From the NCBI GenBank assembly GCA_046116545.1, contig CP175956.1, positions 1,170,912 to 1,234,911 on the forward strand: a stretch of DNA of 64,000 nt, in the 5' to 3' direction. The stretch comes from Candidatus Moraniibacteriota bacterium (GTDB taxonomy: Bacteria; Patescibacteriota; Minisyncoccia; Moranbacterales; GCA-2747515). The notes beneath the pieces were generated by a model. That model searched no databases and was not told the origin of the DNA. It saw only the letters and a program-made list of their open reading frames with translations. Below are positions 9,567 through 41,112 of the stretch, piece after piece. The translations under genes were made by a program, and so were the position numbers. Numbering within the stretch: the first letter of the stretch is position 1; the number at the start of each line of letters is the position of its first letter.

Positions 9567-12500
9567 TTAATTGATTATAAACCAATCAACTTTCAAGTCT
9601 TCTAATCTTTCCTCCAACAACTTCACAACAAATGATTTTCCATCAATGATATCTTCTGCTGCCAAAGTTTGCTCAAGCGGAATTTTTGGACTAACAAACA
9701 CCCTACTATTCACATTAATAGACTCAGTTTCCACAATAACCTCAGTCTCACCAGCAACTATAGTAGCAGTTCCAATGGATGAAGCATTGATTTCGTTACC
9801 TTGTTCATCGTGTGTTGTTATATCGTCATTGATGTTCAATGTATTTGTTTCTATACTATTTACTTTTAAGTCATCTAATACAGTTAGACCTTCTATCGTG
9901 GTTATGAGTCTTGTAGTAGACATTGTATTATTATCTATTGTAAACAAGAATCTTTCATTTATGGCTAGAACTGTATCTGAATTTTTAGACACTGTACTTG
10001 CTAGATCTGACTGATATCCATCTAATTCATCCATTCTATCTTCTATTTCAGTTAGAGTTTCTGTTGCTAAAGTATTTGCATTTATTTGTAGTGACAGTAC
10101 CTCGTGCCTGTCATTAATTCCTCCTATGTCATCCTGAACTTGATTCAGGATCTCAGATGCATCATTTGTTTGTAATGACAAACCTAATTGTTTATCATTT
10201 AAATCTATAATTTGAGTATCAATTTCTGTTATCTTTTGTGGAGTTGGTAGGTTTGATATATCTATCAGATTTAGATTTGGTACTTCTTGTCCTGTTGTTA
10301 TATCTGTTATATATATTAGTTGTTGTCCTGTTAGTTTTTCTATCAATCTTACTGTTTTTGTCATATCTACATTTATTGATTTGTTGTCTTTTTCTGAGTA
10401 ATAGCTCCATGCTAATTCTTCACTTTCTCCTCCGGGTATAGTTGAGAAATTATGTGGAGATAGAGTTGTTGTATTTCCTGCTTCATCTCTTACTCTTAGT
10501 TCATGGGACCCACTTTGATCTACTGCAAACAGTTGTATCCCATTAACTATTGATGTTGTTGGAGCTATTGAGTTTGAGATTGTTAGGATATTATCTGCTG
10601 TTGTTCCGTAGTTACTTGATCCTATTCCTACGTTTCCTGATGTGTAGGCTATATTATTTCCTGTTTGGGTCCATGGAGAGTTTGTGGAGCCTCCTGAGGT
10701 TGAGCCTCGATCTAATTCTACCGCTTTAACACCTACAGAAAGACCTGCTGAATCTGCCTTCACCTGAGTTTTTTCTACAGGATGAAACCCTGTCTTATTA
10801 CCATAGTTAGTATTACTATTTGCTGTAAATAATTCATATGCAAATCCGTTTGCTGAAGGTGTACTATCATATGAGATACGCAAATAACCATTTGTACCAC
10901 CAAAGAGTACAGTTTCTGCTCGTGTTACTGGAATGATATTTGAATAATTTGGATAATTCCATGTTGTTGACATACTTGTTGTAAATAATGGACCTGTATC
11001 TTTTGCGAAATAAATTGTATCACCCTTCATTATAAATTGTTCAATATTACTTGAACTATCTGTTACTACATACCCAAGCCACCTATATGAAGTAAATCCA
11101 CTAGGTATATTTGTTGCATTTATATCTGTATCAAAACCTATGTCTGTTGTTCCATCATCTTTTTCTATTAGGAATACATAATACATTGTATCGTTTGCTA
11201 TTGTTCCACTGAATAGACCTCCTTGGTCATCTCCTTCTGAGAAGCTTGCATCTAATTGTTTTGTTAATCCTGTAGCTAATTCTAGATCTTTTAAATCTGT
11301 TTCATCTTTTGCGTATCCACTTGATACATATACATCATGGTCTGTATCTCCTGAGTCATTTGATAAGTTGAATCCGTATAGGAATCCTGGGGTGTACGAT
11401 GATGAGCTACTTCCTGATGATTCTTCTATTTTCCAGATTTTTAGGTCTGTGTATATTTCATATGGATTTCTATTAGAAGATCGTCCTTGTGCAGCAATAT
11501 TATCTGTGTAAAGAAGGAAATCAATTATTGTTTCTTCTGTAAAGGTTACTTTACCTGTAACAGTAGCATTATCATAATCAGCATATGTTGTACTTGCTGC
11601 TAAAAATGTGTTATCAATTTTTTGAATTTCTAAACGTGTTTTTCCTAAAGAACCAGTTCTAAAGGAAAGACCTGTACCTTCTAAATAATAGTCCCCCGCA
11701 GGTAGAGTGATTTGATTTGATGCAAGTGACGCACCTGCAATTTCATTTGTCATAACTGTATTTAATTGAAGTTGATTTTCACCCGTTGTAATTGTTTGTG
11801 GTGCAGTATTAGTTACTTTCTGATCCTGCACATGCATAAGATTCCAAGTTTGTCCTCCTCCAGATATACTTGAACTTCCACCTCCAATTAATGAACCAGA
11901 AAAGTTAGTCCAATAACCACCACTCATATTTTTATTTGCAGCATTATCATGATAAGCTCTTACTTCGAAATAATCTGTAGTTCCATTTGCATCAACAACA
12001 ACTGAAATTTTATTAGTACGATATGTACCCGTCAAATATCCATAATCACCTGTAACAACACTACCATTTTTATATATATACACTTGAGTTATATCACTAT
12101 CATTCAAATTTTCCCAACGAGTAGTAAAAGTTAATAAATATTTACCTTGAACTGTTGGAGTAAACTGCTCTGTTGTTAAATCAAAATCGTTATTTGTATC
12201 AAATTCCTCAGCATCCCAAGTTACTAAAGTATTTGTAGAACTTGGAATACTTTGGTCTACAGTGTTTTTATTTATACTAAATGATGAAGTGTTTCCAACT
12301 ACACCATCAGCACATTCCCAGTCACTACTCGCTTCATTATATGAAAGAGTTTGTCCATCTGTACATGTTGGTAATGATGATGATTCTGAACTTCCTGCGT
12401 ATTCGTATATTATAACTACACCATCGCTACCTGCTGATGCAGATCTAATGGTTGAACCATCATAACATCCTCCACCCCCACCAGAACCATAGCCTATACT

Positions 12501-15500
12501 TGTTTCAGCATTTTTTCCATTCTGTGCACTTTTAGCATTTTCAAATCCTAAAAATGATAATCCTCCATCTCCAGCTGGACAAGCTTGATAATTTGATAAT
12601 TCTTTTCCTCGTGAACCTGTGTTATTTATGTCACCACCGACTCCACTACCTGGAGCATCAGATACTGCCAATCTATTTCCTTTACCTCCACCAGTTGCTG
12701 ATACATGTGTATCAAATGATGTATCAGTACCACTAGTATTTACAACACCACCAGCACCTACAGTAACTGGAACACTTGTAATTGATGATACATCTATTAT
12801 TTTTTCTGCATAACCAGCACCACTACCTCCTCCACCTCCATAGTTTTCTTCATAGGCTTTTCCTCCTCCACCTCCACCAATAACCTGAACACGAATAGTT
12901 TCAATTCCTGCTGGTTTTGTCCATGTATGTGCTCCTGCTATATCAAATGTTTGGATTGACTTTATTCCACCTCCGCCTGAACTACTAACACCAGCACTAA
13001 CAATACTACTATCATCAGATGTAACTTCTGATATTCTTACACGTGTACTAAATTTTTCATCTGTTGTTCCACGACTTCCATTAATTAATAAAGTGCCATC
13101 ATATGATTTATGTCTGAATTTAAATTGAATATCAAAATCACCGGTTACACTACCTAATTCTGCACGTGTCATTCGTATCATTCCTGAATGTGTTTCTATG
13201 TCAGTAGCACCGTTAGACATCGCCAATTGATAACCAGAATTACCGATTGCAGTCCATGCACCACCATTAAGACTATACTCTAAATAAAGATATCCTCCAC
13301 CCCAACTAGTAGAAGCATTACGTGCAGGAATATTATAATCTAAATCAACATCAAAGCCATCACGAATTGTGACTGTATCCCATGTTTTACCATCAGTTAT
13401 TGCTGTGGTAAATGATCTATCAATATTATCATATTGCACAAATGAATGTGGAATTATACTTGTTCCACTTGAACTTCCTGTAGCAAAAGCTCCCCACTGC
13501 GTTCCATTACAAAACTCCATGACTTTTGTAGTGTCATTGTATCTCATTGCACCTTCTTTGTTTACATCACATGCATCTGTATCATTTGTTAGAGTTATTG
13601 ATCCTGTTAAGTTTATTGGTGTTGAAAACTCTATTTCATTTGATATTGTATTATATGATATTACTGCTTCATTTCCATCTTCTCCTATATGTAATGATGA
13701 TGGTCCTAGGTATAGATCTCTAAATCTATTTGTTGAAGATCCTAGGTCGTATGTATCATCTGTATCTGGTCCTATATGTCCTGCTACTTGTAGTGTGAAG
13801 TTATCTGGTGTTGTTGTTCCTATTCCTATATTTCCTGTGTCGTAGTATGCGTCTGAACCATTTGCTGTCCATAGGGATGAACTTGAACTTGATGAACCAC
13901 TTGATCCAACTGTTACATGTGCTGTACCTGTGAATACTGATGCTGCTAATGTATATTCATTTATATCATCTCCTGATGAACCTACTATAAATACTTTTGT
14001 TCCATCGTTGTTAAATGCTATTCCTGACACTACACCTTCTTGTGCTGATAAACTATATGTTCCTATATGACCTTCTGAATCTATATCAAATGGCCTTGCT
14101 AATGAATATTCATTAATTTCATCTCCATTTTGACCTACTATATACATTCTTTTTCCTCCTGGGCTAAATTCTATACCATTTGGATTTGCTTCTTCTACAC
14201 TAACTGATGATTGTTGTATAAAAGCTGCTGTTGTAACATCAAATGGTGTTGATAATGTGTATTCACCCACATCAATGCCAGTGCTACCAACAACAAACAT
14301 TTTTGTTCCATCATTATTAAATATCACATCATCTGGACCTGTGTCTTCTGTTGCTACTGAAAATCTGTCTGTATATGTAGCTGTTGATACATCAAATGCA
14401 GTTGACAATGTATATTGATTTACATCATCACCTGTGGTACCTATTACATACATGCTTGTTCCATCAGGATTAAATGTAAATCCCGTTGGAGATATTTCTT
14501 GTGTTGCAACTGAAAAACTATCTACAAAAGTTATTGTTGATGCGTCATATGGTGTTGATAGTGTATATTCATTTATATCATCACCTACACCTCCTAGAAT
14601 GAATAATTTTGTTCCATCATTGTTAAATTCTATATCTAATACAGTTGTATCTTGTGCTGTTAAACTCGTTGCATCCACAAAGCTCATAGTACTCAGATCA
14701 TACCCTGTTGCTACTGACTTTATGTCTAATGTAGTATTTGGAGCTATTACTCTTGTTATTTTATCTTTTGGATCTATATATTCTATTGTAATTCCGTCTT
14801 CTATTATTTCTATATGACCTTGAGTCATATCTGTTGTATCAATCATTACTGACATTGCCTCTGTTCCGTCTAAACTATCTAGTGCATTCCAAATTTCTGC
14901 TGTTGTAAAGATATGATTTATTCCTGAAGTCCCCCCAGAACTCCCAGCAGAAGAAGAACTTATTGTTACAGTTTGTGTTCCTGGTGATTTTTTAACTATT
15001 GTTAGAGTTTGATCTCCTAATCCTGTTGTTTGATATACAGTATAATCATCTGTTACATTTTTTTGTGCGTATCCTGTTGCATCAACACTAACATCTATTC
15101 TTTTTAGATTTGGGTTTTGTGTATCAGATGTTGAATAGAAAGTTGATGATAGATCAAAAGTTGTTTGATCTATTGCAAAGGATCCTGATGATTCCCAATC
15201 TGCATCAGATATTGATTCTAATGTTGTAGAGTTCATTTGATTCATTACTCCACTTTCTACTGCTTTTGATATTGCACTATTTGCATTATCTTCTATGCCT
15301 ACTGTACTCCAAGTATCTACGTTATCTCTGAAATACCAAGTTCCATCAGTTCCTCCATGAACTGATGCTTCTTTACTTGCAATGTATCTCCATGCTGAAC
15401 CAGTCCATACTTTGAAAGTATGTCTATTATTGAAACTTACCCCGTAGAATATTGATTGAGAGTTTAGGTTTTCTAATACACTTACTGAGTTTATATCTGT

Positions 15501-18500
15501 CCAATTTGCGCTATCTAAACCATCTTGGTTTGTTATTGTTGTTACGTATGCTCCTGTGTAGTTTCCTAGGGTTTTTTCGTAGAAGGTCATTTCTGAAATA
15601 TCTGTATAACTAGCATCACCATTATTTGCAGTAATATTTAATCTATAATATCTATATGCTGTATTATTAGTAAATCCTGAGTAATTTCTTTTTTCGTTAG
15701 ATAACCAATTCATTTCAGCTGAACGCACATCTAAAACAGTCCAAGTATTTGCATCATTACTTCCTTCAAATGTCCAATCTTTTGGTAATCTTGCTACAGT
15801 AATACCTTGAACAGAATACTCATAAACAATTGCTTCATTTCCTGATCCTAAATCATATTGAATGTGTGCAGCGCCACCCGGAGTACTTAACCATTGTGTT
15901 GAAGTGTTATCATCAAAGGCTCTACTTGGCACATAAGTAGCATAAGCTGAACTTGCCGTAGCAGCACCCCCAGTAGCAATATCACTAACATATTTAACAC
16001 TAGTAGCCTGTCCCAATGTATGAGCTGCATTACTTCCATCGAAGTATGTTCCATATATATTATCTACATCATATATTCCTAATTCTATTTCATTATCATT
16101 TGTGATATGTACTGATTCATTTGCTGTTCCATCTCCTGTTACATCTGTAATTGTGAACCACGCATCTTCCATTTTAAATCTTGATCCTACTCTTACTTTA
16201 TCTGCTGTATTTCCACTTCCTATTGATACTGCTGTATCTGATACGTCTTCGAAGTGTCCTTTGTTGTTGTGTTGGTCTGCGAAGAATTCTAATTCTGAAA
16301 TATCTGTATAACTAGCATCACCATTATTAGCAGTAATATTTAATCTGAAATATCTGTATGCCGTATCATTAATAAATCCTGAGTAATTTCTTTTTTCATT
16401 AGCTATCCAACCCATCTCAGCTGAACGCACATCTAATGCAGTCCAAGTATTTGCATCATTACTTCCTTCAAATGTCCAATCCTTTGGAGCTCTTGTTACA
16501 GAAGTGCTTCGAACAGAATATTCAGAAACAATAGCTTCATTTCCTGATCCTAAATCATATTGAATCTGTGCAGCGCCACCTGGAGTACTTAACCATTGAG
16601 TTGACGTATTATCATCAAAGGCTCTACTTGGTGGATAAGAAGCATGATGAGCACTTGATGTAACAGCCCCACCCGTAGCCAAATCAGGACCAGTACCTCC
16701 ACCAGTATCAACTAAGTCAACTTGAAATTGAGTTATGTTTTCTTTTAAATCTTCTTGTGTATAATTATCTTCTGAATTGTAATTTATGTTTTGTATTTTA
16801 TCAGTTTCTGTTTGTTCTTCTGTAATACTTACAATTGCTGAACCTGATACTGTTGTTGATTCTCCTTGTGCTAGAGTTACTTGAGTTTGAGTTACTCCAC
16901 TTCCTGATGTTCCTGTTGATAATCCTCCCCATATAGTTCCATTACAAAACTCCATGACTTTTGAAGTGTCATTGTATCTCATTGCACCTTCTTTTGTTAC
17001 GTCACAAGCTGATGCGTCATTATTGAGAGTTATACTTCCTCCTATAGCTAGATTGTTTCCATCGTATGTGAAGTTTGAGTTTTGAGTTATTGCATTTCCT
17101 GCACTATTTGTGAATTGTATTTGATTTGCACTTAGGCTTGCTGGTGTATCTGTTAGTCCTGTATATGTTGAAGTTCCTCCACTTGATGTTAGAGAGTTCC
17201 ATACTGAACCATCGTATCCTTCTAGATCTGTTCCACTCCATCTTATCATTCCTGCTACTGCATTTGTACTTGTTCCAAATACTGCTGCTTTATCAAAGTT
17301 GAAAGCTTCGTTTATTGTATCGTAACTTATTATTCCTTCATTTCCGTTTTCTCCTATATGTAGAGAGTTTGGTCCTAGGTATAGGTCTCTGAATCTATTT
17401 GTACTACTTCCTAGGTCGTATGTATCATCTGCATCTGGTCCTATATGTCCTGCTACTTGTAGTTTGAAGTTTGTTGGAGTATTTGTTCCTATTCCAATAT
17501 TACCGTTACTATTTAGAATAGTAAACAAACTAGATGAAAATAAATCAGTAGTACTTGCACCACCACCTCTAGTAATTACAAAATCATTCCCCAAAAGTCC
17601 TTGTTGCCAAGCAGTTTGACCGCCTCTATGAAAAGACAAGTATGGAACATTCCCATCATCAGTGGAACTATTTGAATAAATTTCTTGAAAAGCAAATGTA
17701 CCATTTCCAATTTGATTTTTCATTGTTGAACCTGAATATGCACTTTCTACTTCTAATTTACTATTTGGTACCATTGTTCCTATGCCAATACTTCCTGCAA
17801 AATAATTTTTTGCAGTACTATTTTTTTGATATACTCCATATTTATTTATAACATTTGCTCCACCATCTAGATTATCAAGAAAAATTGCATATGAATTTGT
17901 AATTGTTCCTGTCGGATTGATTGTATTAGAGCCCACTCTACTCCATATACCATACTGTTCATTTAGAGCTCCTTGAAAATTTGAATCATTCGTAAAACCT
18001 TGAACACCTAATCCAATTCTATATCCCGAGTCTAAAACACCTGCCGCTATTGGCAAATCATAACCTGTGATATCTACAACTTTATAATGATTTGTTCCAC
18101 TAGCTATAACATCTGGATATGTTTCACCTATGTCTAATGTATTTGCTATTGGAGGATTTACCGCTATCCCAATTGAATCATAACTTGCATCTATACTAAA
18201 TAGATTCAAAATGTTTTCTCCTTCAATTCTAAAGTTATTATCTCCACCTTCTTCATTAAAAATCGCACTTCCTCTAACATCCAACATTGCATTTGGACTA
18301 TCCGTCCCAATCCCAACTCTCCCATTAACAGTATCAACAAAAAAATCATTTGAATTAACTGTAAAGTCATCTCCCAGAGTTAATCCTCCAGTTTTATTTT
18401 GAATTGAGTTTGAAGTATTTAAATAGTAATCTTCTGTTTGTCCATTAAACCTATGTGAGTTTAAAGCAAAACCTGTTGGAGTTATTTTTCTTCTTGGAGT

Positions 18501-18872
18501 CATCTCTGAATTTGAGTTTATTGTTACTCCTAGGTAATAGTTTGAATCAAAAGTTATATCTAATACATTATCTCCACTTTCTCCTAGAGTTGTACTAAAT
18601 ATCCCATTTGTTATTGTTAAAGTTTTTGAAGTTGGAGTTCCACATGTTCCTCTACTAGTCCATAGACATGTTCCTCCTGATTCTGCATCATATATTGTTA
18701 ATGTGAAATCATAATCTCCATCTGATACTGCTACGTTATTAGTATCTGTTAGTTTTCCATGATATGTTAGTTCACTGTCTGGTGCAGCTTGTGTAATTGA
18801 AAAATTAAGAATTATTGCTAACGCAATTATTCCTAATATGTAAGTTAATTTGTTTTTGAAAGTTTTTTTCAT
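9567..18872 (-). CDS. Giant (3101 aa) secreted multidomain surface protein with phage tail-fibre-like motifs, two discoidin (F5/8 type C)-like domains, a Gly-rich domain and beta-propeller-like repeats
   Basis: Single uninterrupted 9.3-kb ORF; signal peptide; recurrent VGIGT..P..L.V.G and DLGSS.NRFRDLYLG motifs; duplicated SRAFDDNTSTQWLS...YRYFRLNITAN discoidin-like domains; GGGGGG-rich block; 6 tandem repeats of about 48 aa. Confidence 0.8.
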   Translation of the reverse strand: MKKTFKNKLTYILGIIALAIILNFSITQAAPDSELTYHGKLTDTNNVAVSDGDYDFTLTIYDAESGGTCLWTSRGTCGTPTSKTLTITNGIFSTTLGESGDNVLDITFDSNYYLGVTINSNSEMTPRRKITPTGFALNSHRFNGQTEDYYLNTSNSIQNKTGGLTLGDDFTVNSNDFFVDTVNGRVGIGTDSPNAMLDVRGSAIFNEEGGDNNFRIEGENILNLFSIDASYDSIGIAVNPPIANTLDIGETYPDVIASGTNHYKVVDITGYDLPIAAGVLDSGYRIGLGVQGFTNDSNFQGALNEQYGIWSRVGSNTINPTGTITNSYAIFLDNLDGGANVINKYGVYQKNSTAKNYFAGSIGIGTMVPNSKLEVESAYSGSTMKNQIGNGTFAFQEIYSNSSTDDGNVPYLSFHRGGQTAWQQGLLGNDFVITRGGGASTTDLFSSSLFTILNSNGNIGIGTNTPTNFKLQVAGHIGPDADDTYDLGSSTNRFRDLYLGPNSLHIGENGNEGIISYDTINEAFNFDKAAVFGTSTNAVAGMIRWSGTDLEGYDGSVWNSLTSSGGTSTYTGLTDTPASLSANQIQFTNSAGNAITQNSNFTYDGNNLAIGGSITLNNDASACDVTKEGAMRYNDTSKVMEFCNGTIWGGLSTGTSGSGVTQTQVTLAQGESTTVSGSAIVSITEEQTETDKIQNINYNSEDNYTQEDLKENITQFQVDLVDTGGGTGPDLATGGAVTSSAHHASYPPSRAFDDNTSTQWLSTPGGAAQIQYDLGSGNEAIVSEYSVRSTSVTRAPKDWTFEGSNDANTWTALDVRSAEMGWIANEKRNYSGFINDTAYRYFRLNITANNGDASYTDISELEFFADQHNNKGHFEDVSDTAVSIGSGNTADKVRVGSRFKMEDAWFTITDVTGDGTANESVHITNDNEIELGIYDVDNIYGTYFDGSNAAHTLGQATSVKYVSDIATGGAATASSAYATYVPSRAFDDNTSTQWLSTPGGAAHIQYDLGSGNEAIVYEYSVQGITVARLPKDWTFEGSNDANTWTVLDVRSAEMNWLSNEKRNYSGFTNNTAYRYYRLNITANNGDASYTDISEMTFYEKTLGNYTGAYVTTITNQDGLDSANWTDINSVSVLENLNSQSIFYGVSFNNRHTFKVWTGSAWRYIASKEASVHGGTDGTWYFRDNVDTWSTVGIEDNANSAISKAVESGVMNQMNSTTLESISDADWESSGSFAIDQTTFDLSSTFYSTSDTQNPNLKRIDVSVDATGYAQKNVTDDYTVYQTTGLGDQTLTIVKKSPGTQTVTISSSSAGSSGGTSGINHIFTTAEIWNALDSLDGTEAMSVMIDTTDMTQGHIEIIEDGITIEYIDPKDKITRVIAPNTTLDIKSVATGYDLSTMSFVDATSLTAQDTTVLDIEFNNDGTKLFILGGVGDDINEYTLSTPYDASTITFVDSFSVATQEISPTGFTFNPDGTSMYVIGTTGDDVNQYTLSTAFDVSTATYTDRFSVATEDTGPDDVIFNNDGTKMFVVGSTGIDVGEYTLSTPFDVTTAAFIQQSSVSVEEANPNGIEFSPGGKRMYIVGQNGDEINEYSLARPFDIDSEGHIGTYSLSAQEGVVSGIAFNNDGTKVFIVGSSGDDINEYTLAASVFTGTAHVTVGSSGSSSSSSSLWTANGSDAYYDTGNIGIGTTTPDNFTLQVAGHIGPDTDDTYDLGSSTNRFRDLYLGPSSLHIGEDGNEAVISYNTISNEIEFSTPINLTGSITLTNDTDACDVNKEGAMRYNDTTKVMEFCNGTQWGAFATGSSSGTSIIPHSFVQYDNIDRSFTTAITDGKTWDTVTIRDGFDVDLDYNIPARNASTSWGGGYLYLEYSLNGGAWTAIGNSGYQLAMSNGATDIETHSGMIRMTRAELGSVTGDFDIQFKFRHKSYDGTLLINGSRGTTDEKFSTRVRISEVTSDDSSIVSAGVSSSGGGGIKSIQTFDIAGAHTWTKPAGIETIRVQVIGGGGGGKAYEENYGGGGGSGAGYAEKIIDVSSITSVPVTVGAGGVVNTSGTDTSFDTHVSATGGGKGNRLAVSDAPGSGVGGDINNTGSRGKELSNYQACPAGDGGLSFLGFENAKSAQNGKNAETSIGYGSGGGGGCYDGSTIRSASAGSDGVVIIYEYAGSSESSSLPTCTDGQTLSYNEASSDWECADGVVGNTSSFSINKNTVDQSIPSSTNTLVTWDAEEFDTNNDFDLTTEQFTPTVQGKYLLTFTTRWENLNDSDITQVYIYKNGSVVTGDYGYLTGTYRTNKISVVVDANGTTDYFEVRAYHDNAANKNMSGGYWTNFSGSLIGGGSSSISGGGQTWNLMHVQDQKVTNTAPQTITTGENQLQLNTVMTNEIAGASLASNQITLPAGDYYLEGTGLSFRTGSLGKTRLEIQKIDNTFLAASTTYADYDNATVTGKVTFTEETIIDFLLYTDNIAAQGRSSNRNPYEIYTDLKIWKIEESSGSSSSSYTPGFLYGFNLSNDSGDTDHDVYVSSGYAKDETDLKDLELATGLTKQLDASFSEGDDQGGLFSGTIANDTMYYVFLIEKDDGTTDIGFDTDINATNIPSGFTSYRWLGYVVTDSSSNIEQFIMKGDTIYFAKDTGPLFTTSMSTTWNYPNYSNIIPVTRAETVLFGGTNGYLRISYDSTPSANGFAYELFTANSNTNYGNKTGFHPVEKTQVKADSAGLSVGVKAVELDRGSTSGGSTNSPWTQTGNNIAYTSGNVGIGSSNYGTTADNILTISNSIAPTTSIVNGIQLFAVDQSGSHELRVRDEAGNTTTLSPHNFSTIPGGESEELAWSYYSEKDNKSINVDMTKTVRLIEKLTGQQLIYITDITTGQEVPNLNLIDISNLPTPQKITEIDTQIIDLNDKQLGLSLQTNDASEILNQVQDDIGGINDRHEVLSLQINANTLATETLTEIEDRMDELDGYQSDLASTVSKNSDTVLAINERFLFTIDNNTMSTTRLITTIEGLTVLDDLKVNSIETNTLNINDDITTHDEQGNEINASSIGTATIVAGETEVIVETESINVNSRVFVSPKIPLEQTLAAEDIIDGKSFVVKLLEERLEDLKVDWFIIN
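13870..14770. repeat. Coding tandem repeats (about 144-nt period, 6 copies) inside the giant gene
   Basis: Encodes repeated FNNDGTK.F..G..GDDINEYTLS units. Confidence 0.6.
15595..15928. repeat. Direct repeat copy 1 (about 334 bp, about 90% identical to copy 2) inside the giant gene
   Basis: Nucleotide-level near-identity seen by eye; encodes a duplicated discoidin-like domain. Confidence 0.8.
16297..16631. repeat. Direct repeat copy 2 inside the giant gene
   Basis: See copy 1. Confidence 0.8.
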
Positions 18873-23755: not shown

Positions 23756-26700
23756 TTAAACTTTAATATCCTCCCTAACAAGACCTTTCCTAACATTGAT
23801 ATTACCTTGTTTTTCAAAAGGTTGTCCTGATATTGGTTGTCCTTTTACTTTCATATTGTAATCTCCATTTTCTGCTAGAAGATAATATCTTCCTATTGCA
23901 TCTGTTACAGCGAATCCTGTTTTTTGATTTGTTTCTTTGTTATGGAGTGATACTACTGCAAAAGGTACTGGGTTTTTATCATGTTTTGTTACTGTTCCAT
24001 ATTTCTTTTGTTTTATGAAGTTATCATAAATGAACAGTGCCATATATAGAGATAGGAATATGTAATTTAGAGTTGATGGGTACAGGTAAGTTATTGCTGC
24101 TGTAGCTATAAATCCTACGTAAAAAAGAATTATGAAGCTCCATTTCTTTATTGCTGAGAAAGTTCCTGTATAGCTTTTTACTTTTTTATCTGCATATTCA
24201 TTCCAGTTTATATTCAGGGCATTCATTGCAATATTTGTTGCTAGAACTTTGTTTTCTTCTATTGTTAATGCTTCTCCTGTATATACATCTCCGTATAGTG
24301 AATCATGGTTATGAGTTAGGTCTTCTTCATATTTTGGTTTTTCTGGATGTATCAGATATGTTCCATTTGTTGTTAAGAATCCAAATCTTCCATGTTGATC
24401 TGAGTATGTTGTTTCTATTTCAAAGCCCTCTATATCAGTTAGAACTAGTTTTACTCCAGGCAATGGTTGTTTTGTTGTTTGTTCAAACACTGTTCCCCAG
24501 TTTTGTTCATTTTTTCTTCTAGCTAATATTCCTAAGAAAGGCATTATGAATATATCTGTTGCTGCCATTGGGATTGTTGTGAATAGAGGGATTGTTGTTG
24601 AAGCTAGAGCTATTAGTGTTCCTGTTGTTAATCCTACTACTGCAGCTGCTTGATATTGTTTTTCTTTTTGTTGTTCCTTTGTTGGTTCTTGTACAGGAGG
24701 ATCTGTTACTTCTTGTGCTGGTGGTTCAGGATCACTTCCTCCTTGTACTACTGGAGGAGTTACTATTTCTTTTTCTTCTCTACTAGCGCTACATGTTATT
24801 TCTTCATCATCATTTGTACATGTCCATGAAGATGATTCTCCTTGATTTGGAAATTCTGGTATATTTAATACTTCTCCTGTTTGACAGAAGTCTCCTGTGA
24901 ATTCTGATTCATCTTCTGTATATGTTTTACTTGATTCTCCACATTCTGGATTTACTATTTCTTTTGTAGGTCCTAGAGTTGTTTTTTCTGTTGTTGCTGT
25001 TTTAGAATGTGGACAGTATTCGTAGCTATCATCTTCTTGATATGATACTTTGAACCTATATTGGGTATCTTCTTCTAGGTTATCTATCTCTAGAGTTACT
25101 CTTCCACTATCAGATGGTTTATCCGTTAGTTTTATTGTTTCTTTTTCATTTGTATATAGATTCTCTACTTCTACTTTGAATTTTATTTTCTCATCTGCGT
25201 ATTCTTCATCTACTTCTACTCTTAGAGTTACTGAATCTTTTGTTATTTCTTTTATATTGTCGGTTTTGCATTCTTTTTCTTCTTCTGGATCCTCTGGGTG
25301 TATTGGTGGGGTTACTGGAGAATCACATGATGGGTCTGGTTTTGTTTTGTATGTGAAGTCTGATCCTGTGTTGTCAGGTTGTGTTGTATATGCTATCTCC
25401 CATTTATCTAGTTTTGGAGTTATTTGGTTGTCTGTTGTTTCAAATGTGAATTTTAGACAAATTTCAATATTACTCGTACTAATTCCACTTAAATCAATGT
25501 TCCTATCTACTGTACTTGGAATTAATGTTGTTATACAATTTTTATCTAGTATTTCTGTTTCTAATATGGTATTGGCAACAGAATCAACTGTTATATTTAA
25601 ATTATTCCACTCTTTTACAAATCCAACTGTACTAACAATTGTCTTATATTCTCCAGTTGCACTATAAGCCAATGGATCATAGGTTCCATCTGTGTTATAT
25701 GCTGTAAAAAATACATCTTTATCTCCATTAGAGATATGTTCATCTGACCCACCCGTTCCATCAAAATTTACCATTTCTGAAAACATTCCAATAATTCTAA
25801 CATCTTCACCATGTACCCATGGTTTTATAGCATAATCGCCACCAACTCCACCAAACGTACGTGTCCATCCATATGTTCCATCTGCATTATATCTAGTCAA
25901 AAATGCATCTTCCATTCCGTTTGAAGCATGTTCATCTGTTCCACCGGTTCCATCAAAATTACCATCCTCCCAAAAATATCCAGATACATAAATATTATTA
26001 GCACCATCAACTGCAACACCATTTCCAGTACCAGCCCCAAATGTGCGTGTCCATTCATATGTTCCATTTGTAGCATATTTTGTTAAAAATACATCACTAG
26101 TTCCGTCTGCTACATGCACATCACTACCACCACCCGTATCAAAATTCACAGAATCAGAAAAAGTTCCCACAATAAGTATATCTCCATTTATATCTATTAC
26201 ATTACCAAATCCCCTATCTTGATTGGTAGCTCCAAATGTACGTGTCCATCCATATGTTCCATCTGCATTATATCTTGTTAAAAATACATCATTACTTCCA
26301 TTAGATGTATGATTATCTACGCTACCACTAGCATCAAAATCAAATACACCTGTAAAGGAACCCGTTGAAAATACACCACCAAAAGAATCAACTGCTAGAG
26401 AATTGGCACTTCCATCTTGCACGCCTCCAAATGTACGTGTCCATCCATATGTTCCATCTGCATTATATCTTGTTAAAAACATGTCACTTGTTCCACTACT
26501 TACCGTATGCATATCTGCTCCACCAGTATCATCAAAATTTACAGTAGCATGGAACACACCTACTATAAAAACATTTCCGCTAGCATCAATGCCAATATGC
26601 CCTGCTTCATCAGGTCCACAGTGCGTCATCATACAATCTGCACTACCTAGACCGATTACGCGTGTCCATCCATATGTTCCATCTGCATTATATTTTGTTA

Positions 26701-28213
26701 AAAATCCATCTGCACCTTCGTTATGATCATGCCGAATATCTGTTCCAATACCTGCATCAAAATCAACAGAGTTCTCAAATGATCCAGTCATGAATATATC
26801 TCCCGATGCATTAACAACAATTGAATCAGGGTGATCAAAACCACTTCCACCAAATGTACGTGTCCATCCGTATGAACCATCTGCATTATATTTTGTTAAA
26901 TATGCGTCTGCAAATCCACCATTAGACGTGTGAATATCAACTCCATCAGTAGCATCAAAGTCAACATCATTTGAAAAAGAACCTGTCAAAAAAGTATTAT
27001 CATTACTATCCATAGCCATAAAACTCCCAGAATCCCAACCAACACTACCAAAAGTACTAGCTCTCATAGTTCCCGGTACATAATCCAAAGCTACCATACC
27101 ATTTCCATCACTTACAACCTGCGTATTTGTTAAATCTCCTATGAACTCACTCTCAATATCTTCTTTTTTTGTAACTTTTTCTTGTGAAATCATTTTCAAT
27201 TCAGTAACATTACAATCCTTTCCTTCACTATCAGGGACTGGCGCATAATCCCAAGAAACTCTATTATTATTTGAATATAAAAATGAAGTTGTGTCTGGGT
27301 GTGTACTTTCTTCAGAACCTATTTCATAACACTCACATTCTGAAACTGTTTTTATTATTGTCGTATCCCCTGGTGCCGCAGCTCTATCTGCATTACAACT
27401 TTGAGTTTCACCGTTAGATAGACAATTCCAATGCACTATTTGTTCATAGTCTGGAAAAGCAGGAGCAACATCAACCACTCCAACGTTACAAAAAGTTCCA
27501 TCAAAAGCTGTTTCATTTGCTGTATATGTACGTGCTGCTATTCCACATTGTGGCACAATATCTTCAGCAAGAACCTCTAGCTCATTGATTTGAGGGTCAA
27601 CTGTACTTGTGGTAGTTGTAGTAGTTGTGGTTGTAGTTGTATAATAGTGAAAATTTTGATTTGTATAATAGTTAGTATAACACGTATATGTCCCTGACAT
27701 TGACGTGCACATAAAACCTGTATATGTAGTTGTAGTTATAGATTGATTTTGATTTTGATGTGGATTTTGATGTGGGTTTTGAAAACTACTTCCTCCATCA
27801 TGAAATTCAAACTTGATATACCTACCAGTTGCATCAAAAATGGGTGATTCTTGCCACGAGGCTAATGGATTCGGCTCCCAATTACTAATAACTGGAAATA
27901 TAGGAAAATTATCGGGATCCTCAGAAACAAAAATTTCAACAGTTGAAAGTCCTCCTGAATCATTAATATATAAACGAGCTTGAGTAATAGATTTTGATAT
28001 GCCAAGGTCATATATTGCACTAGCATTGGGAACCTCATGTAAATATTCATTCCCAGTTGATGTATTCTGATCGATTGTCAAATCAGCTGATCCCCAACTA
28101 CCATCAACATCGTATACAGAAACGGGAGTTTGCCATGCTGCACTTGCAGTATGAGTCACCGCCAAAGACACGCTAAAAAGAAAAATTAAACTACTTATTT
28201 TAATTTTATACAT
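23756..28213 (-). CDS. Large (1485 aa) secreted surface protein with eight SBBP-type beta-propeller repeats, a poly-Thr linker, an FN3-like region and C-terminal TM segments with CarboxypepD_reg-like domains
   Basis: Signal peptide; eight repeats of DGTYGWTRTFGG...; TTTTTTTTTTST tract; C-terminal hydrophobic helices. Confidence 0.75.
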   Translation of the reverse strand: MYKIKISSLIFLFSVSLAVTHTASAAWQTPVSVYDVDGSWGSADLTIDQNTSTGNEYLHEVPNASAIYDLGISKSITQARLYINDSGGLSTVEIFVSEDPDNFPIFPVISNWEPNPLASWQESPIFDATGRYIKFEFHDGGSSFQNPHQNPHQNQNQSITTTTYTGFMCTSMSGTYTCYTNYYTNQNFHYYTTTTTTTTTTTSTVDPQINELEVLAEDIVPQCGIAARTYTANETAFDGTFCNVGVVDVAPAFPDYEQIVHWNCLSNGETQSCNADRAAAPGDTTIIKTVSECECYEIGSEESTHPDTTSFLYSNNNRVSWDYAPVPDSEGKDCNVTELKMISQEKVTKKEDIESEFIGDLTNTQVVSDGNGMVALDYVPGTMRASTFGSVGWDSGSFMAMDSNDNTFLTGSFSNDVDFDATDGVDIHTSNGGFADAYLTKYNADGSYGWTRTFGGSGFDHPDSIVVNASGDIFMTGSFENSVDFDAGIGTDIRHDHNEGADGFLTKYNADGTYGWTRVIGLGSADCMMTHCGPDEAGHIGIDASGNVFIVGVFHATVNFDDTGGADMHTVSSGTSDMFLTRYNADGTYGWTRTFGGVQDGSANSLAVDSFGGVFSTGSFTGVFDFDASGSVDNHTSNGSNDVFLTRYNADGTYGWTRTFGATNQDRGFGNVIDINGDILIVGTFSDSVNFDTGGGSDVHVADGTSDVFLTKYATNGTYEWTRTFGAGTGNGVAVDGANNIYVSGYFWEDGNFDGTGGTDEHASNGMEDAFLTRYNADGTYGWTRTFGGVGGDYAIKPWVHGEDVRIIGMFSEMVNFDGTGGSDEHISNGDKDVFFTAYNTDGTYDPLAYSATGEYKTIVSTVGFVKEWNNLNITVDSVANTILETEILDKNCITTLIPSTVDRNIDLSGISTSNIEICLKFTFETTDNQITPKLDKWEIAYTTQPDNTGSDFTYKTKPDPSCDSPVTPPIHPEDPEEEKECKTDNIKEITKDSVTLRVEVDEEYADEKIKFKVEVENLYTNEKETIKLTDKPSDSGRVTLEIDNLEEDTQYRFKVSYQEDDSYEYCPHSKTATTEKTTLGPTKEIVNPECGESSKTYTEDESEFTGDFCQTGEVLNIPEFPNQGESSSWTCTNDDEEITCSASREEKEIVTPPVVQGGSDPEPPAQEVTDPPVQEPTKEQQKEKQYQAAAVVGLTTGTLIALASTTIPLFTTIPMAATDIFIMPFLGILARRKNEQNWGTVFEQTTKQPLPGVKLVLTDIEGFEIETTYSDQHGRFGFLTTNGTYLIHPEKPKYEEDLTHNHDSLYGDVYTGEALTIEENKVLATNIAMNALNINWNEYADKKVKSYTGTFSAIKKWSFIILFYVGFIATAAITYLYPSTLNYIFLSLYMALFIYDNFIKQKKYGTVTKHDKNPVPFAVVSLHNKETNQKTGFAVTDAIGRYYLLAENGDYNMKVKGQPISGQPFEKQGNINVRKGLVREDIKV
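25756..27031. repeat. Coding tandem repeats (SBBP units, about 8 copies) within the 1485-aa gene
   Basis: Recurrent nucleotide motif ccaaatgtacgtgtccatccatatgttccatctgcattatat. Confidence 0.7.
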
Positions 28214-29492: not shown

Positions 29493-30296
29493 TTACATAT
29501 AACCTAATGATCGTAATTTTTGCATTGCAAATTCTTTTTCCTTATCCTGTGCCCTACCATCCCTTTCATCTGTATTTTCATTTTTTAATTCCTCTATGAT
29601 CTCATCAATTGTTATCGCACTACTATTTATTGGATTTGTTATTTGTTGACATCCCAAACTACGATATCTTTTACCATTTTTTGCAAAATATAACTCATTT
29701 ACTGGCATATTTTCTTGTTTGATATATTCCCAAATTTCAACTTCAGTCCAGTTCAATATTGGATGTATACGAACATGTCCTCCATCTTCTATATTTTGAG
29801 TATAAACATCACCTACTTGTGTATCATGATTCATATAATCCCAAGAAAAATCTGATTTTCTAGGAGAAACTACTTGTTCTTTTGCACGAATTCCGTGTTC
29901 ATCAGCTCTAATACCTACAAATAATCCTTTAATTTCTTTTTCTTTAACTATATCTTGTAATGGTACTGTTTTTAAATTATGACATACTGTCACAGCATCA
30001 TGTGATTCATATGACATCCCTTCTTTTATAGCTCTTTCATTCGTTTTTATAATTAAATCTAATTCTAATTCATTAGCATAATAATCACGAAATTCATACA
30101 TTTCTGGAAATTTAAATGTTGTATCTATATGAATGACTGGAAATGGAATATTACCAAAAAATGCTTTTTTACAAAGCCAAAGTAATACAGTGGAATCTTT
30201 CCCCATACTCCAAAGTAATGCTAGATTTTTTTGTTGTGCATACATTTCACGGATGATATAAATACTTTCATCCTCACGCTCTTTCAAAATACTCAT
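29493..30296 (-). CDS. cysD: Sulfate adenylyltransferase subunit 2 (PAPS reductase/ATP sulfurylase small subunit family)
   Basis: LLWSMGKDSTVLLWL (SxGKDS PP-loop), HIDTTFKFPEMYEFRD, both CysD-like. Confidence 0.7.
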   Translation of the reverse strand: MSILKEREDESIYIIREMYAQQKNLALLWSMGKDSTVLLWLCKKAFFGNIPFPVIHIDTTFKFPEMYEFRDYYANELELDLIIKTNERAIKEGMSYESHDAVTVCHNLKTVPLQDIVKEKEIKGLFVGIRADEHGIRAKEQVVSPRKSDFSWDYMNHDTQVGDVYTQNIEDGGHVRIHPILNWTEVEIWEYIKQENMPVNELYFAKNGKRYRSLGCQQITNPINSSAITIDEIIEELKNENTDERDGRAQDKEKEFAMQKLRSLGYM

Positions 30297-32242
30297 AATA
30301 AACTTTCTCCATCAAAGTCATCTGATGGTTCTATATTTAAAATATTATAAATTGTTGGTACAATATCAACCTGCTCAATATTTGTCCGATTAATTTTTAA
30401 ATTTGTAAAAAATATACCGGGTACAAATTTCTTATCTACCATATGATCACCTGTCCACTGCTTTTCATTATCAGTTATTTCATCAACTGTAAATCCACCT
30501 ATAGCTGTTTTCCAATCAGTTCTATATCCCGGATAATAACCCAAAACAATATCTGGAGCATTATCTAATGCATCTCCATGCCATATTTCAGATGCTTTAT
30601 ATGCTTTATGAATAACTTTTTTTCCTGTTTTTTCATCAGTAATTTGCTCCAATTCTGAAATAATTTCTTCAATTAATTCTTCTTTGTCATCAACAATTCC
30701 ATTACTTTCTCTCCCAACTTGATTTATATATATTGCATTAAAGCCAATAGAATACGCCTTTGTTTTACTCCAATCAACGTATTCAAATAAAGACCCATCA
30801 TCTTTTTCTGTAATATCTTTATCTAATGTCATCAAATCATTATTTTTTAACCAAGTGTTTACATTTAACCCTCTTTCAAATGATGTAAAGCCATGATCTG
30901 ATAGAACCATCATTGCAGTATCCTCATCAATATTATTCATCACTTCTCCAATAAATTTATCTTTATTTACATAATATTGTTCTATAACATCATCATACTC
31001 AACTTTATCTGTAGAATTTTCTGCCAAAATAGTATCGGACCAATGCGTATGTTGCAACCTATCTGAAGAATCATATACAAAAGCTAATACTCCAGTATCT
31101 TTTTTTTGAAATTCATCGAATTCTCTCCAAAACATTTTATCACGCTCTTCCTCAATTTGTGCAATATGCTTCAAAAATCCATCTTCAGATAATGCTCCAT
31201 CCATAAGTCCATCAGTTTCCTCTGGCATGCCCAAGGTATAATAAAGTCCAATGTCTTTTGCTATATCAGTTGAATAATTATGCGGATAAGATATTTCAGT
31301 AATTGGATCTTCTGGATCAATTTGCATAGTTGTTACATACATCTGAAATGGTTCCATACTTTGCAAATAAGCTCTCCAAATACCACTTTTTTTACTAAAA
31401 AAATTAATATCAAATGAAGATTTCATCCAATCCGTCCATTCACCAATTGAAATTTCTTTTTCTATCTTTCCATTTATAATTTTAACTGTTTTATCATTTA
31501 CTTTTTCTAACGTTATTGGAGCTGTTATATCTTTTACTTCCCCACCCTGCATGCTTCTCGGACCATACACAATAGTATCAACAGTACCTTCTGACAAGTT
31601 TACTCTTATGATTTTATTAGACTCCTTTTCTGATTCAAACTCATTCTCGGTGTATAAAGAATACCCACTCAAAAATCCTTTTACATCTGGTACTCCTAAT
31701 CCTGCTAATGATTTGCCATTAAAATTTTCAGATGGAAATGTCATTGGCCACTTAACAACGGTTGAAGAAATACCTTTTTCTCCAATTTTTTTCCAAAAAG
31801 GCTCTTTTTTTATAAAAGAAGAGTATCTTGTTCCATTAAAAGTGTTTTCAGACTCAAATAATCCAAGAACCGGCATGTATGTATCGGGATTACGTCTGAT
31901 GAAGTCAAATATATTATGTTTTCCTGCATTTACTCCAGTGGCAATTGTAGTCCAAGCAACTGGACTCTGTGGTGGAAAAACTGTTTGCAATTCTGTACCC
32001 AATCCACTATCTGCCAATTTTTTAAAGTTTGGCATTTTGTCATCCTCCATAAGAGAATTAACTATTTTTGGATCCATTCCATCAATACCAATTAGTAAAA
32101 CTTTATTATATTCAGTATTTTTTACCATTTGTTTTTTGTTACAAAAATTTAAACATATAAATACTATACCAATCATAATAATAAATCCCATAAGAAAACT
32201 TATTATATGTGGTTTTTTTATTTTACTCATTCCATGAAACAT
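30293..32242 (-). CDS. Membrane-anchored type I phosphodiesterase/nucleotide pyrophosphatase family protein (alkaline phosphatase superfamily)
   Basis: N-terminal TM; LLIGIDGMDPKIV..MPNFKKLADSG core typical of PF01663; 4-nt overlap with cysD. Confidence 0.55.
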   Translation of the reverse strand: MFHGMSKIKKPHIISFLMGFIIMIGIVFICLNFCNKKQMVKNTEYNKVLLIGIDGMDPKIVNSLMEDDKMPNFKKLADSGLGTELQTVFPPQSPVAWTTIATGVNAGKHNIFDFIRRNPDTYMPVLGLFESENTFNGTRYSSFIKKEPFWKKIGEKGISSTVVKWPMTFPSENFNGKSLAGLGVPDVKGFLSGYSLYTENEFESEKESNKIIRVNLSEGTVDTIVYGPRSMQGGEVKDITAPITLEKVNDKTVKIINGKIEKEISIGEWTDWMKSSFDINFFSKKSGIWRAYLQSMEPFQMYVTTMQIDPEDPITEISYPHNYSTDIAKDIGLYYTLGMPEETDGLMDGALSEDGFLKHIAQIEEERDKMFWREFDEFQKKDTGVLAFVYDSSDRLQHTHWSDTILAENSTDKVEYDDVIEQYYVNKDKFIGEVMNNIDEDTAMMVLSDHGFTSFERGLNVNTWLKNNDLMTLDKDITEKDDGSLFEYVDWSKTKAYSIGFNAIYINQVGRESNGIVDDKEELIEEIISELEQITDEKTGKKVIHKAYKASEIWHGDALDNAPDIVLGYYPGYRTDWKTAIGGFTVDEITDNEKQWTGDHMVDKKFVPGIFFTNLKINRTNIEQVDIVPTIYNILNIEPSDDFDGESLL

Positions 32243-32251
32243 AATTCACAC

Positions 32252-32536
32252 CTATATAAAAAATGAAATACAAATCCATACAATACCAATTAAAACTAAT
32301 ACTGCTAATATAATTATTAATTTTCCAAATACATTCCAGTTCCAAAGTTTTTTAATTTTCATCAATGTTGCAACAGCAAGGCTCCCAAAAAATGCAAATA
32401 CCAATCCAATTCCAGCACCAAGTCCTCCAACAACACTCCCAGCTGTTCCAGGGTCAATGTAGGCATACACACTTTGTACTTGCACAGCAGTTACTATTAC
32501 CAACGATAAACACAGACTTATATACTTCATATTCAC
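32252..32536 (-). CDS. Small membrane protein (signal peptide plus Gly-zipper TM)
   Basis: 94 aa; GGLGAGIGLVFAFFG motif; lies in the operon between two AlkP-family genes. Confidence 0.4.
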   Translation of the reverse strand: MNMKYISLCLSLVIVTAVQVQSVYAYIDPGTAGSVVGGLGAGIGLVFAFFGSLAVATLMKIKKLWNWNVFGKLIIILAVLVLIGIVWICISFFI

Positions 32537-32544
32537 TTTTTATT

Positions 32545-33999
32545 TTATTTAAGATACCCTAATGACTTTAATATCTGGATTTCCTCTTCTGTTAATTTTA
32601 TCTCTTCATTTGTTATATTTCCAGCCTTAAGCATCAACTCTAACTGATCAATCATTGCAGTTGCTATTTCTGGATTTCCTTCTAAAACATTCTCATCTTC
32701 ACCATTATTCATATCATATAATACATACTCTATTTCTTCTACATCATTCACAGAATTCACAAATCGAATCAACTTCCATTCATCCGTTCGTAGTGTAGCT
32801 CGCAATCCCTTACCAAACTTCTTTTTGCCATTATTAATTTTCTGTTTTTTACCAGCTTTTGCCTCTACCAATTCATTTTCTACATATTTTAATATACTAA
32901 ATGTAAAATCATTTATTTTTGCAACTTCTCCATTTATAAGTGGCACTAAACTACTTCCCTCAACCTCTTTTGGTACATCTATACTTAACATATCCAAAAT
33001 TGTAGGTAAGATATCTATTGATTGAGTTAACTCCTCAACCTCTTCTCCAATATATTTATTTGCTGGATTATATATTACTAATGGAACATGTATTTCTTCA
33101 TCATAAACTGTCTGATAATGCCCTCTAGTTAATTGATTTGGTGTATTAGGTGCAAATAAACCTTTTTCATGTTCTCCAAAAGCTTCCCCGTGATCTGAAG
33201 TTATAACTATGATAGTTTTATCATCAATTTTCAACTCTCGCAATAGCTCAATTATACGGTTAAATTGATAGTCCACATGTTTAATTTCACCATCATAACG
33301 TCTTTGCATATACAAAAACTTATCAAATTCTTCTTCAGGACTATCTGGATAAACATATTCTGCAGGTGGCTTGTATGGATCATGAGGATCCCAATAATGA
33401 ATCCATGTAAAAAATTTACGCTCACTATTATCTTGTATCCATGTAATCGCCTTATCAGTTACTTCTTGTGCTGTATTATCCTTTCTCGCTGCAGGTGTTA
33501 AGTCAATCATATCGAACCCAGGCACCAAACTGTGTACCATTTTACTCCCCATAAATGCAATTGTTGCATAATGATTTTCTTTTAAGATTTTTGCAATAAA
33601 AGGCAAATCTGTATCATCCGGCCCACCATCTTCTATAGGTATTCCTGGAGAGTAATGTTTATGTGTATGAGGATATGTACCACTCATGATAGACCAATGC
33701 GATGTTGGTGTGTATGGCATCTGTACAAAATTATTTTTAAATAGAATGCCCTTTTTTGCTAATTTATCAATTAAAGTTGTCGTGTCCCTATCATAACCAT
33801 ACGAAGAAAAATGATCTGCTCTAGTTGTATCCATTGTAACTAAAATTACATTGCAATCTTCACATGACTCTCTCACAACGTCCATGATATCAGACTCTTT
33901 TTTTGGTAGCACCTCTCTACTATAAAAGATTACTACTGTGATTATTAATAAGATAACAACTGCAATAATTGATTTTTTTTCTTTTACTTGAATTTTCAT
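32545..33999 (-). CDS. Sulfatase-like hydrolase/transferase (alkaline phosphatase superfamily), membrane-anchored; probably not a formylglycine sulfatase
   Basis: N-terminal TM; metal-site motifs MDTTRADHF and SDHGE; no C/S-x-P-x-R sulfatase signature found. Confidence 0.6.
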   Translation of the reverse strand: MKIQVKEKKSIIAVVILLIITVVIFYSREVLPKKESDIMDVVRESCEDCNVILVTMDTTRADHFSSYGYDRDTTTLIDKLAKKGILFKNNFVQMPYTPTSHWSIMSGTYPHTHKHYSPGIPIEDGGPDDTDLPFIAKILKENHYATIAFMGSKMVHSLVPGFDMIDLTPAARKDNTAQEVTDKAITWIQDNSERKFFTWIHYWDPHDPYKPPAEYVYPDSPEEEFDKFLYMQRRYDGEIKHVDYQFNRIIELLRELKIDDKTIIVITSDHGEAFGEHEKGLFAPNTPNQLTRGHYQTVYDEEIHVPLVIYNPANKYIGEEVEELTQSIDILPTILDMLSIDVPKEVEGSSLVPLINGEVAKINDFTFSILKYVENELVEAKAGKKQKINNGKKKFGKGLRATLRTDEWKLIRFVNSVNDVEEIEYVLYDMNNGEDENVLEGNPEIATAMIDQLELMLKAGNITNEEIKLTEEEIQILKSLGYLK

Positions 34000-39336: not shown

Positions 39337-39362
39337 ATAATTAAATTATACCAAAATTATGA

Positions 39363-40502: not shown

Positions 40503-40505
40503 AAT

Positions 40506-41108: not shown

Positions 41109-41112
41109 AAAT

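Follow-up and report, generated by a model that had tools for sequence, protein, structure and literature searches.

Discoidin-type domains of the CBM32/F5/8C family occur as tandem pairs in Clostridium perfringens ZmpB (CBM32-1/-2), in the Neobacillus GH92 enzyme 7nsn and in a Paenibacillus chitosanase (DD1/DD2), while factor V/VIII (C1-C2) and neuropilin (b1b2) also carry two domains per protein. In a group of bacterial surface proteins, the Periscope Proteins (Whelan et al. 2021; PMC8201768), repeats of folded domains have been described as unusually similar in DNA sequence, and concerted evolution in prokaryotes has been documented for paralogues (PMC6053082). Here we describe a gene that can be compared with each of these systems. 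It lies in a 64,000-nucleotide stretch of DNA from a Candidatus Moraniibacteriota bacterium (contig CP175956.1 of assembly GCA_046116545.1, positions 1,170,912 to 1,234,911 of the forward strand; the whole stretch is referred to as the window), and it encodes a giant protein that contains two very similar discoidin-like domains, D1 and D2 (Table 1). The reading that we favour, and consider likely to be correct, is that the pair is old, that D1 is nested in another module, and that the cores of the two domains are homogenised within the gene by intragenic gene conversion and swapped between genes.

The original prediction, made from the DNA sequence, was that the giant gene contains direct repeats of 334 bp with about 90% identity, which encode a duplicated discoidin-like domain. 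The repeats are indeed present, and both reside within the 3101-residue open reading frame (ORF). Comparison of the gene with itself by blastn returned a repeat of 394 nt with 87.3% identity (E 3e-139), and the alignment did not reveal low similarity. The two segments first noticed are contained within this longer repeat, which continues for ~55 nt at the high-coordinate end with lower identity; their alignment is free of internal gaps and contains 33 mismatches among 336 codon-aligned nucleotides (90.2% nucleotide and 86.6% amino-acid identity). Across the full repeat D1 and D2 differ at 50 of 394 positions, and the longest exact run that they share is 43 nt. The offset between the copies is exactly 702 nt (234 codons), and thus both copies share the reading frame of the ORF. 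At this fixed offset sliding identity falls to background (~30%) beyond the limits of the repeat, and blastn detected no third copy within the 64-kb window. The ratio of non-synonymous to synonymous divergence (dN/dS) between D1 and D2 is ~0.33, indicating that both copies are under purifying selection.

The assignment of the repeats to the discoidin fold was borne out by profile, model and structural comparisons. Both stretches match the Pfam family F5_F8_type_C (PF00754; 59.3 bits against a cut-off of 28.2), and in an AlphaFold2 model of residues 722-1104 each adopts a beta-sandwich with a predicted local distance difference test score (pLDDT) >90. The spacer between the domains scores <50 in the same model, probably because the construct was without the N-terminal part of the module to which the spacer belongs. 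When known structures were searched by Foldseek, single-domain matches in the Protein Data Bank included the GH92 mannosidase 7nsn_B (root-mean-square deviation 1.9 Å over 138 columns, 28% identity), with further matches to Paenibacillus chitosan-binding modules (4zy9/4zxe), AlyQ CBM32 and NanJ CBM32; target-normalised TM-scores for stand-alone CBM32 modules were 0.76-0.80. Two-domain matches included ZmpB CBM32-1/-2, factor VIII C1-C2 and neuropilin b1b2, and the only solved structure found by sequence was 7nsn_A, both F5/8C domains of which match (E 2e-20). Judged by their domain family, D1 and D2 are carbohydrate-binding domains of the discoidin/CBM32 type and would be expected to bind glycans. 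The differences between them show no clear enrichment in loops (13 of 71 loop positions compared with 11 of 61 strand positions, as assigned by DSSP). In 71 distant proteins that possess two domains of this subfamily, amino-acid identity within a protein is usually 40-60% and reaches at most 88%. The 87% displayed by the window pair is thus exceptional, which indicates that the similarity is maintained.

The basis of this similarity was explored by comparing the window gene (Q) with two other genes. One encodes P0002 (XLQ19940.1), a paralogue in the same genome, the DNA of which was taken from metagenome contig L067, which encodes residues 1-1521 of P0002 at 100% identity. The other, L184, is a locus on JAEMOL010000028.1 of GCA_017973795.1, the product of which (P0168, 3902 residues) emerged when the spacer was used as a HMMER query. 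Genome contigs (one genome per species) yielded no close relative, the best identity being 46% and the tandem pairs belonging to unrelated Paenibacillus-type proteins, and viral contigs likewise gave only distant single-domain matches with identities ≤47%. P0002 has the same D1-spacer-D2 layout and the same junctions as the window gene, and the layout is shared by L184; D1 and D2 are offset by 702 nt in both Q and L184, and by 714 nt in P0002 as a result of small indels. Compared position by position, Q and P0002 are 92-98% identical at the nucleotide level in the flanks and spacer (97.6% for the spacer itself), with a synonymous divergence (dS) in the flanks of 0.09-0.21, whereas the N-terminal half of both domain cores is 58-69% identical. 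D1 and D2 of the same gene are more alike, with a dS of 0.32 in Q and 0.37 in P0002, than are cores of the two different genes, for which dS is 0.60-0.76.

The same grouping is evident at individual sites. When the four domains of Q and P0002 are aligned by codon, 52 informative core sites unite the copies within a gene, 7 unite them by position and 1 crosswise. At codons that specify an identical amino acid in all four copies the corresponding figures are 7, 3 and 0 and, while these numbers are small, the within-gene excess indicates that the signal is not the product of convergent selection. In a neighbour-joining tree built from the six domain copies, D1 and D2 of each of the three genes pair with one another. 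At the nucleotide level the two copies of a gene are 88%, 87% and 99.4% identical, whereas cores from different genes are 68-76% identical; in L184 the two copies are 99.5% identical over 397 nt. The spacer of L184, in contrast, retains 58% nucleotide and 54% amino-acid identity with that of the window gene which, together with the shared layout, indicates that the arrangement was in place before the genes compared here diverged. As the layout is shared and the D1/D2 dS of 0.32 lies above that of the paralogue flanks, the similarity of the copies reflects concerted evolution rather than youth. From these sequence comparisons, the D1/D2 pair is much older than the coalescence of its members in any gene, and recurrent intragenic gene conversion would be the simplest mechanism for the grouping within genes.

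Alignment with homologues places D1 not as a tandem copy but nested inside a small conserved module. An exhaustive HMMER search identified 25 homologues of the spacer at E≤1e-3. The NYTQEDLKENITQFQVDLVDT segment, which in the window gene precedes D1, is contiguous with the spacer segment in P0169 (two copies), P0171, P0172, P0174, P0178, P0181, P0183, P0184, P0185 and P0192, as it is in five small proteins (P0170, P0173, P0175, P0177 and P0186). Where the module is uninterrupted, the spacer consensus is 'N.SGHFED..IG.GNT..G.RF..W.EIT.ITGDG'. The flank preceding D1 matches residues that adjoin the spacer-like segment in P0169, P0174, P0183, P0184, P0185 and P0192, with P0169 carrying two such matches (E 3e-4 and 5e-4). 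In multiple alignments with 11-16 homologues whose module is uninterrupted D1 appears as one large insertion, and the module is interrupted by D1 in the window gene, P0002 and L184. In one of the P0169 copies an intact module is followed by a discoidin-like domain, which is presumed to be the ancestral order. A second AlphaFold2 model (residues 686-965, from an 18-sequence alignment) contains a small beta domain at residues ~860-943 with a pLDDT of 70-90, only the C-terminal part of the module being confidently predicted. BLASTP revealed no homology between the spacer and the flank that follows D2, and no match between the stretch preceding D1 (residues ~650-730) and the spacer; thus, the flanks are not additional copies of the spacer. 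A tandem-duplication unit consisting of spacer plus domain was rejected on these grounds, and because identity at the 702-nt offset is at background outside the domain. In the five small proteins listed above, which are 230-250 residues long, the module ('VDTA.TSGHFE..G.GNT..') is located near the N-terminus and the C-terminal half is helical; in the window protein the module is without a Pfam family.

We envisage that a copy of the discoidin domain was inserted in a loop or junction of the small neighbouring module, generating D1, with D2 placed after the module. Within each gene of the family the two cores would then be repeatedly homogenised by intragenic gene conversion while, between genes and strains, they would come to differ strongly, the changes occurring at sharp boundaries that correspond to the domain edges within near-identical flanks and module. 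The outcome may be a bivalent lectin head with two sites of matched specificity, the specificity varying from paralogue to paralogue.

Several observations weigh against this reading. Both copies were resolved in only three genes, two of which are from one genome. L184 derives from a short-read metagenome-assembled genome (MAG) and has a scaffold gap in D1, and its 99.5% identity may include partial consensus collapse. The D1/D2 differences in the window gene are fairly evenly spread, such that, with no identical run beyond the 43 nt noted above, no very recent conversion tract is visible. With respect to the nesting of D1, the insertion point is ambiguous within ~12 residues, as two MAFFT runs differ, and the second AlphaFold2 model, with a mean pLDDT of 51, is too weak to inform on how the two halves of the module pack. 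Finally, in the comparison of the window gene with P0002, joint import of a matched pair is an alternative to conversion.

This last alternative, in which both cores were imported together from a donor with a matched pair, such that D1/D2 divergence is simply the age of one old duplication, is the strongest competitor to intragenic conversion, yet we regard it as improbable. It draws on the evidence that cores are exchanged. In three-way DNA alignments, near-identical sequence gives way sharply to divergent sequence at the 5' edge of D1 and at the 3' edge of D2. On contig L001 (SWBW01007414.1) identity to the window is 96.9% as far as the point where D1 begins and 98.7% beyond the point where D2 ends, and the visible head of D1 and tail of D2 between these flanks constitute a third core type, which is ~72% identical to all four other heads. 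These sharp switches in conserved flanks indicate that the scaffold is conserved and that the cores vary within it in the manner of cassettes. The family is, moreover, mosaic throughout: the same-genome paralogues P0002, P0003 and P0007 are near-identical (70-90%) in the N-terminal ~170 and the C-terminal ~380 residues, whereas the middle modules, which are Kelch-like, SPRY, RCC1-like and phage tail-collar in type, are shuffled. Exact matches between the window gene and the P0002 gene extend to at most 167 nt, and a blastn search with the gene found no archive of silent cassettes in the window. The similar dS of the D1/D2 pair in Q and P0002 would also follow if both pairs descended from one old duplication. 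Paired replacement, however, leaves the matched pair of the donor unexplained, given that cores of different genes differ more than those within a gene; the 97.6% identity of the spacer in Q and P0002 means that two separate tracts would be needed; and the near-identity of the L184 copies, far above that of the other pairs, calls for homogenisation at a later stage. D1/D2 conversion and joint import of a matched pair are not distinguishable in every gene, but late homogenisation is required in L184.

The original prediction took the 90% identity of the repeats to mean that the duplication of the discoidin domain was recent. High nucleotide identity between direct, in-frame repeats is what a recent tandem duplication would generate. 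This view is not borne out, and we consider it very unlikely, because the layout and junctions recur in P0002 and L184, in the latter around a module that has diverged to 58% nucleotide identity; because D1 and D2 have accumulated more synonymous change than the paralogue flanks; and because the 702-nt period is not a unit, the spacer being half of a module and unrelated to the other flanks. It should be emphasized that, where gene conversion acts, the high nucleotide identity of internal repeats does not date the duplication.

A further proposal was that repeats of this size can drive gain or loss of domains and create length-variant alleles. In its strongest form this would make the pair a variable-length stalk or contingency repeat of the Periscope type, in which likeness is preserved so that recombination can alter the number of domains, and high DNA identity between domain repeats of surface proteins is indeed said to promote changes in repeat number (PMC8201768). 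Neither gain or loss nor length variation was seen, however, as the comparison with relatives that the prediction called for revealed exactly two copies in each of the three resolvable genes (Q, P0002 and L184). The copies are not arranged head to tail, as ~100 residues of an unrelated module, the one that harbours D1, lie between them, and a deletion product would truncate that module. Indeed, as D1 is nested, most of the host module would be lost whenever D1 and D2 underwent unequal crossover, and length variation may therefore be less tolerable here than in a true tandem array. A Periscope-type explanation is thus highly improbable.

The warning that such repeats are a source of assembly error was justified for the relatives of the window gene, but no such error is evident in the window itself. 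Of four related contigs, three, all from short-read assemblies, are interrupted at this point. In L001 a 10-N gap, accompanied by a change of frame, separates the head of D1 from the tail of D2, such that the number of copies is not countable. In L184 a 100-N gap is located inside D1 (L184:747-956), and the same 55 nt are repeated exactly on both sides, which indicates that the gap is spurious and closable by overlap. A third contig, L143 (SWBX01003515.1), matches the window at 99.3% identity and stops 10 nt short of the repeat. It could be argued from these breaks that the second copy, or its likeness to the first, was created by misassembly of a repeat-rich gene. We view this as scarcely credible for the window gene, in which neither copy is broken or out of frame, more than a tenth of the positions distinguish the two, their flanks are distinct and exact matches between them extend to no more than 43 nt; the source contig is 1.29 Mb in length, and L067, which carries the P0002 gene, was assembled independently with the same two-copy layout. 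The analysis flags a spot at which short-read metagenome assemblies of this family fail. Stretches of kilobase scale that are near-identical between paralogues represent a larger assembly hazard than the D1/D2 repeat.

Diversity-generating retroelements (DGRs) are common in bacteria of the candidate phyla radiation (CPR). The possibility that D1 and D2, as two imperfect repeats of a few hundred nucleotides, are the template and variable repeats of such an element is negligible and was rejected, as the mismatches are not adenine-specific (of 53 differing sites, adenine occurs in D1 at 12 and in D2 at 18), transitions and transversions are similar in number with all 12 substitution types represented, each copy is an in-frame coding sequence subject to purifying selection, the fold is that of discoidin rather than a C-type lectin, and no match to a reverse transcriptase family was obtained among the scanned window ORFs of ≥150 residues (three opposite-strand ORFs inside larger genes excepted).

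Intragenic conversion of an old, nested pair combined with exchange of cores thus implies that three processes have acted on one 1.1-kb stretch, namely nested insertion of a domain, homogenisation within the gene and core swapping between genes. These processes single out the discoidin cores as the part of a poorly understood protein family that is likely to vary and to face the ligand. Judged by its domain family and signal peptide, the protein may possibly contribute to attachment to host cells. It is conceivable, though on balance doubtful, that a multigene family of giant, tail-fibre-like surface proteins has the matched pair as its specificity-determining head, through which an episymbiotic Moraniibacteriota cell recognises host glycans. 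Cores would be exchanged or diversified between paralogues and strains at the flanks and module, which would serve as conserved recombination 'handles', and conversion would copy a new specificity from one site to the other, keeping the bivalent head matched. If this were correct, the head family would be a cellular analogue of the cassette exchange of phage receptor-binding proteins.

The coordinates of the gene, its internal features and other features of the window are listed in Table 1. The host ORF is identical (100%) to XLQ20057.1 (P0001), annotated by NCBI as 'discoidin domain-containing protein' in a Candidatus Moraniibacteriota MAG on a contig of 1,286,331 bp. Its Pfam matches are two F5_F8_type_C domains and Gly_rich_2, and NCBIfam contains no family for it. 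The sequence MKKTFKNKLTYILGIIALAIILNFSITQA/AP at the N-terminus has the appearance of a typical Sec signal peptide. Beyond the discoidin repeat, the gene contains a second, dispersed internal duplication that encodes 'GNIGIGT..LQVAGHIGPD.DDTYDLGSSTNRFRDLYLGP.SLHIGE' and 'C.DV.KEGAMRYND..KVMEFCNGT.WG' modules, both of which recur in all paralogues, and a series of 51-residue blades, at least 10 of which are present in each of the paralogues P0003, P0004 and P0005. The window has a G+C content of ~32%, and the giant gene is surrounded by ordinary chromosomal genes, among them those for Mur ligase, FemAB, M16 peptidase, UvrB, an EF-Tu-like GTPase, MurJ and RNase P RNA; a search of the full 64 kb revealed no tRNA genes. 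The EPTP/EAR repeat, seven copies of which occur in an 855-residue protein encoded in the window, is best known from vertebrate LGI1/ADGRV1, and a paralogous stretch of this gene with 85.7% identity is located at L067:1671-2799, upstream of the P0002 gene.

Table 1. Positions, within the 64,000-nt window, of the giant gene, its internal features and other features.
Feature	Position	Strand	Remarks
Host gene	9567..18872	-	3101-residue secreted, modular, tail-fibre-like giant surface protein; from ORF list and translation
D1 (repeat copy B), discoidin/CBM32, nested in host module	16293..16686	-	Residues 729-860; best Pfam stretch residues 737-861
D2 (repeat copy A), discoidin/CBM32	15591..15984	-	Residues 963-1094; from blastn, Pfam, AlphaFold2 and Foldseek
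Host module, N-terminal part ('...NYTQEDLKENITQFQVDLVDT')	16698..16787	-	Residues ~696-725; directly upstream of D1
Spacer (host module, C-terminal part)	15990..16289	-	Residues ~862-961; 'NNKGHFED..IGSGNT..VGSRF..WFTITDVTGDG..'
Second, dispersed internal duplication, copy 2	13464..13835	-	Residues 1680-1743 and 1759-1803; first copies at 17313-17504 (84% nucleotide identity to 13644-13835) and 16896-17033 (80% to 13464-13598)
Five tandem 153-nt (51-residue) blade-like repeats	13938..14642	-	'FNNDGTK.F..G..GDDINEY.LS..FD'; 62-77% identical
Large surface-type protein	23756..28213	-	1485 residues; CarboxypepD_reg domains
Sulfatase and phosphodiesterases	30293..33999		
Glycosyltransferase run	38212..42219		
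EPTP/EAR repeat protein	42688..45255	-	855 residues; 7 repeats (PF03736, E 1.3e-96)
Sugar transferase	45341..46762		
Bacterial RNase P RNA, class A	46795..47143	-	109 bits
Small SdrD_B-like protein	47249..47803	-	

In summary, the feature falls within known kinds, the tandem CBM32 pair and the concerted evolution of repeats, and departs from each in particular respects. The domains have the same fold and belong to the same sequence family as the pairs of ZmpB, the Neobacillus GH92 enzyme, the Paenibacillus chitosanase, factor V/VIII and neuropilin, and here, too, there are two per protein, presumably for bivalent binding of glycans. In contrast to these tandem pairs, D1 is nested in another module rather than simply adjacent to D2, the copies are much closer in sequence than is usual in the subfamily, and the host is a non-enzymatic, tail-fibre-like CPR protein of 3101 residues. 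As in the concerted evolution of prokaryotic paralogues and the intragenic homogenisation of surface-protein repeats, copies within a gene are closer to each other than to their positional counterparts, in three of three genes. Here, however, it involves neither whole genes nor tandem arrays but a pair of non-adjacent domains of a single gene, and it is accompanied by core replacement, at the edges of the domains, from one paralogue or strain to another. The protein shares with Periscope Proteins its location at the bacterial surface and the high DNA identity of its folded domain repeats, but it has neither a tandem array nor observed length variation, an unrelated module separates the copies, and its domains are of a kind that usually binds ligands, with nothing to suggest a role as spacers. 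The conserved scaffold around divergent, swappable binding modules resembles the cassette exchange of phage receptor-binding proteins and tail fibres, and of polymorphic surface or toxin proteins, a likeness extended by the annotation of paralogues of the window protein as 'tail fiber protein'. Unlike the phage cassette systems, the window gene is chromosomal and resides among housekeeping genes such as those for Mur ligase, FemAB, UvrB and the EF-Tu-like GTPase.

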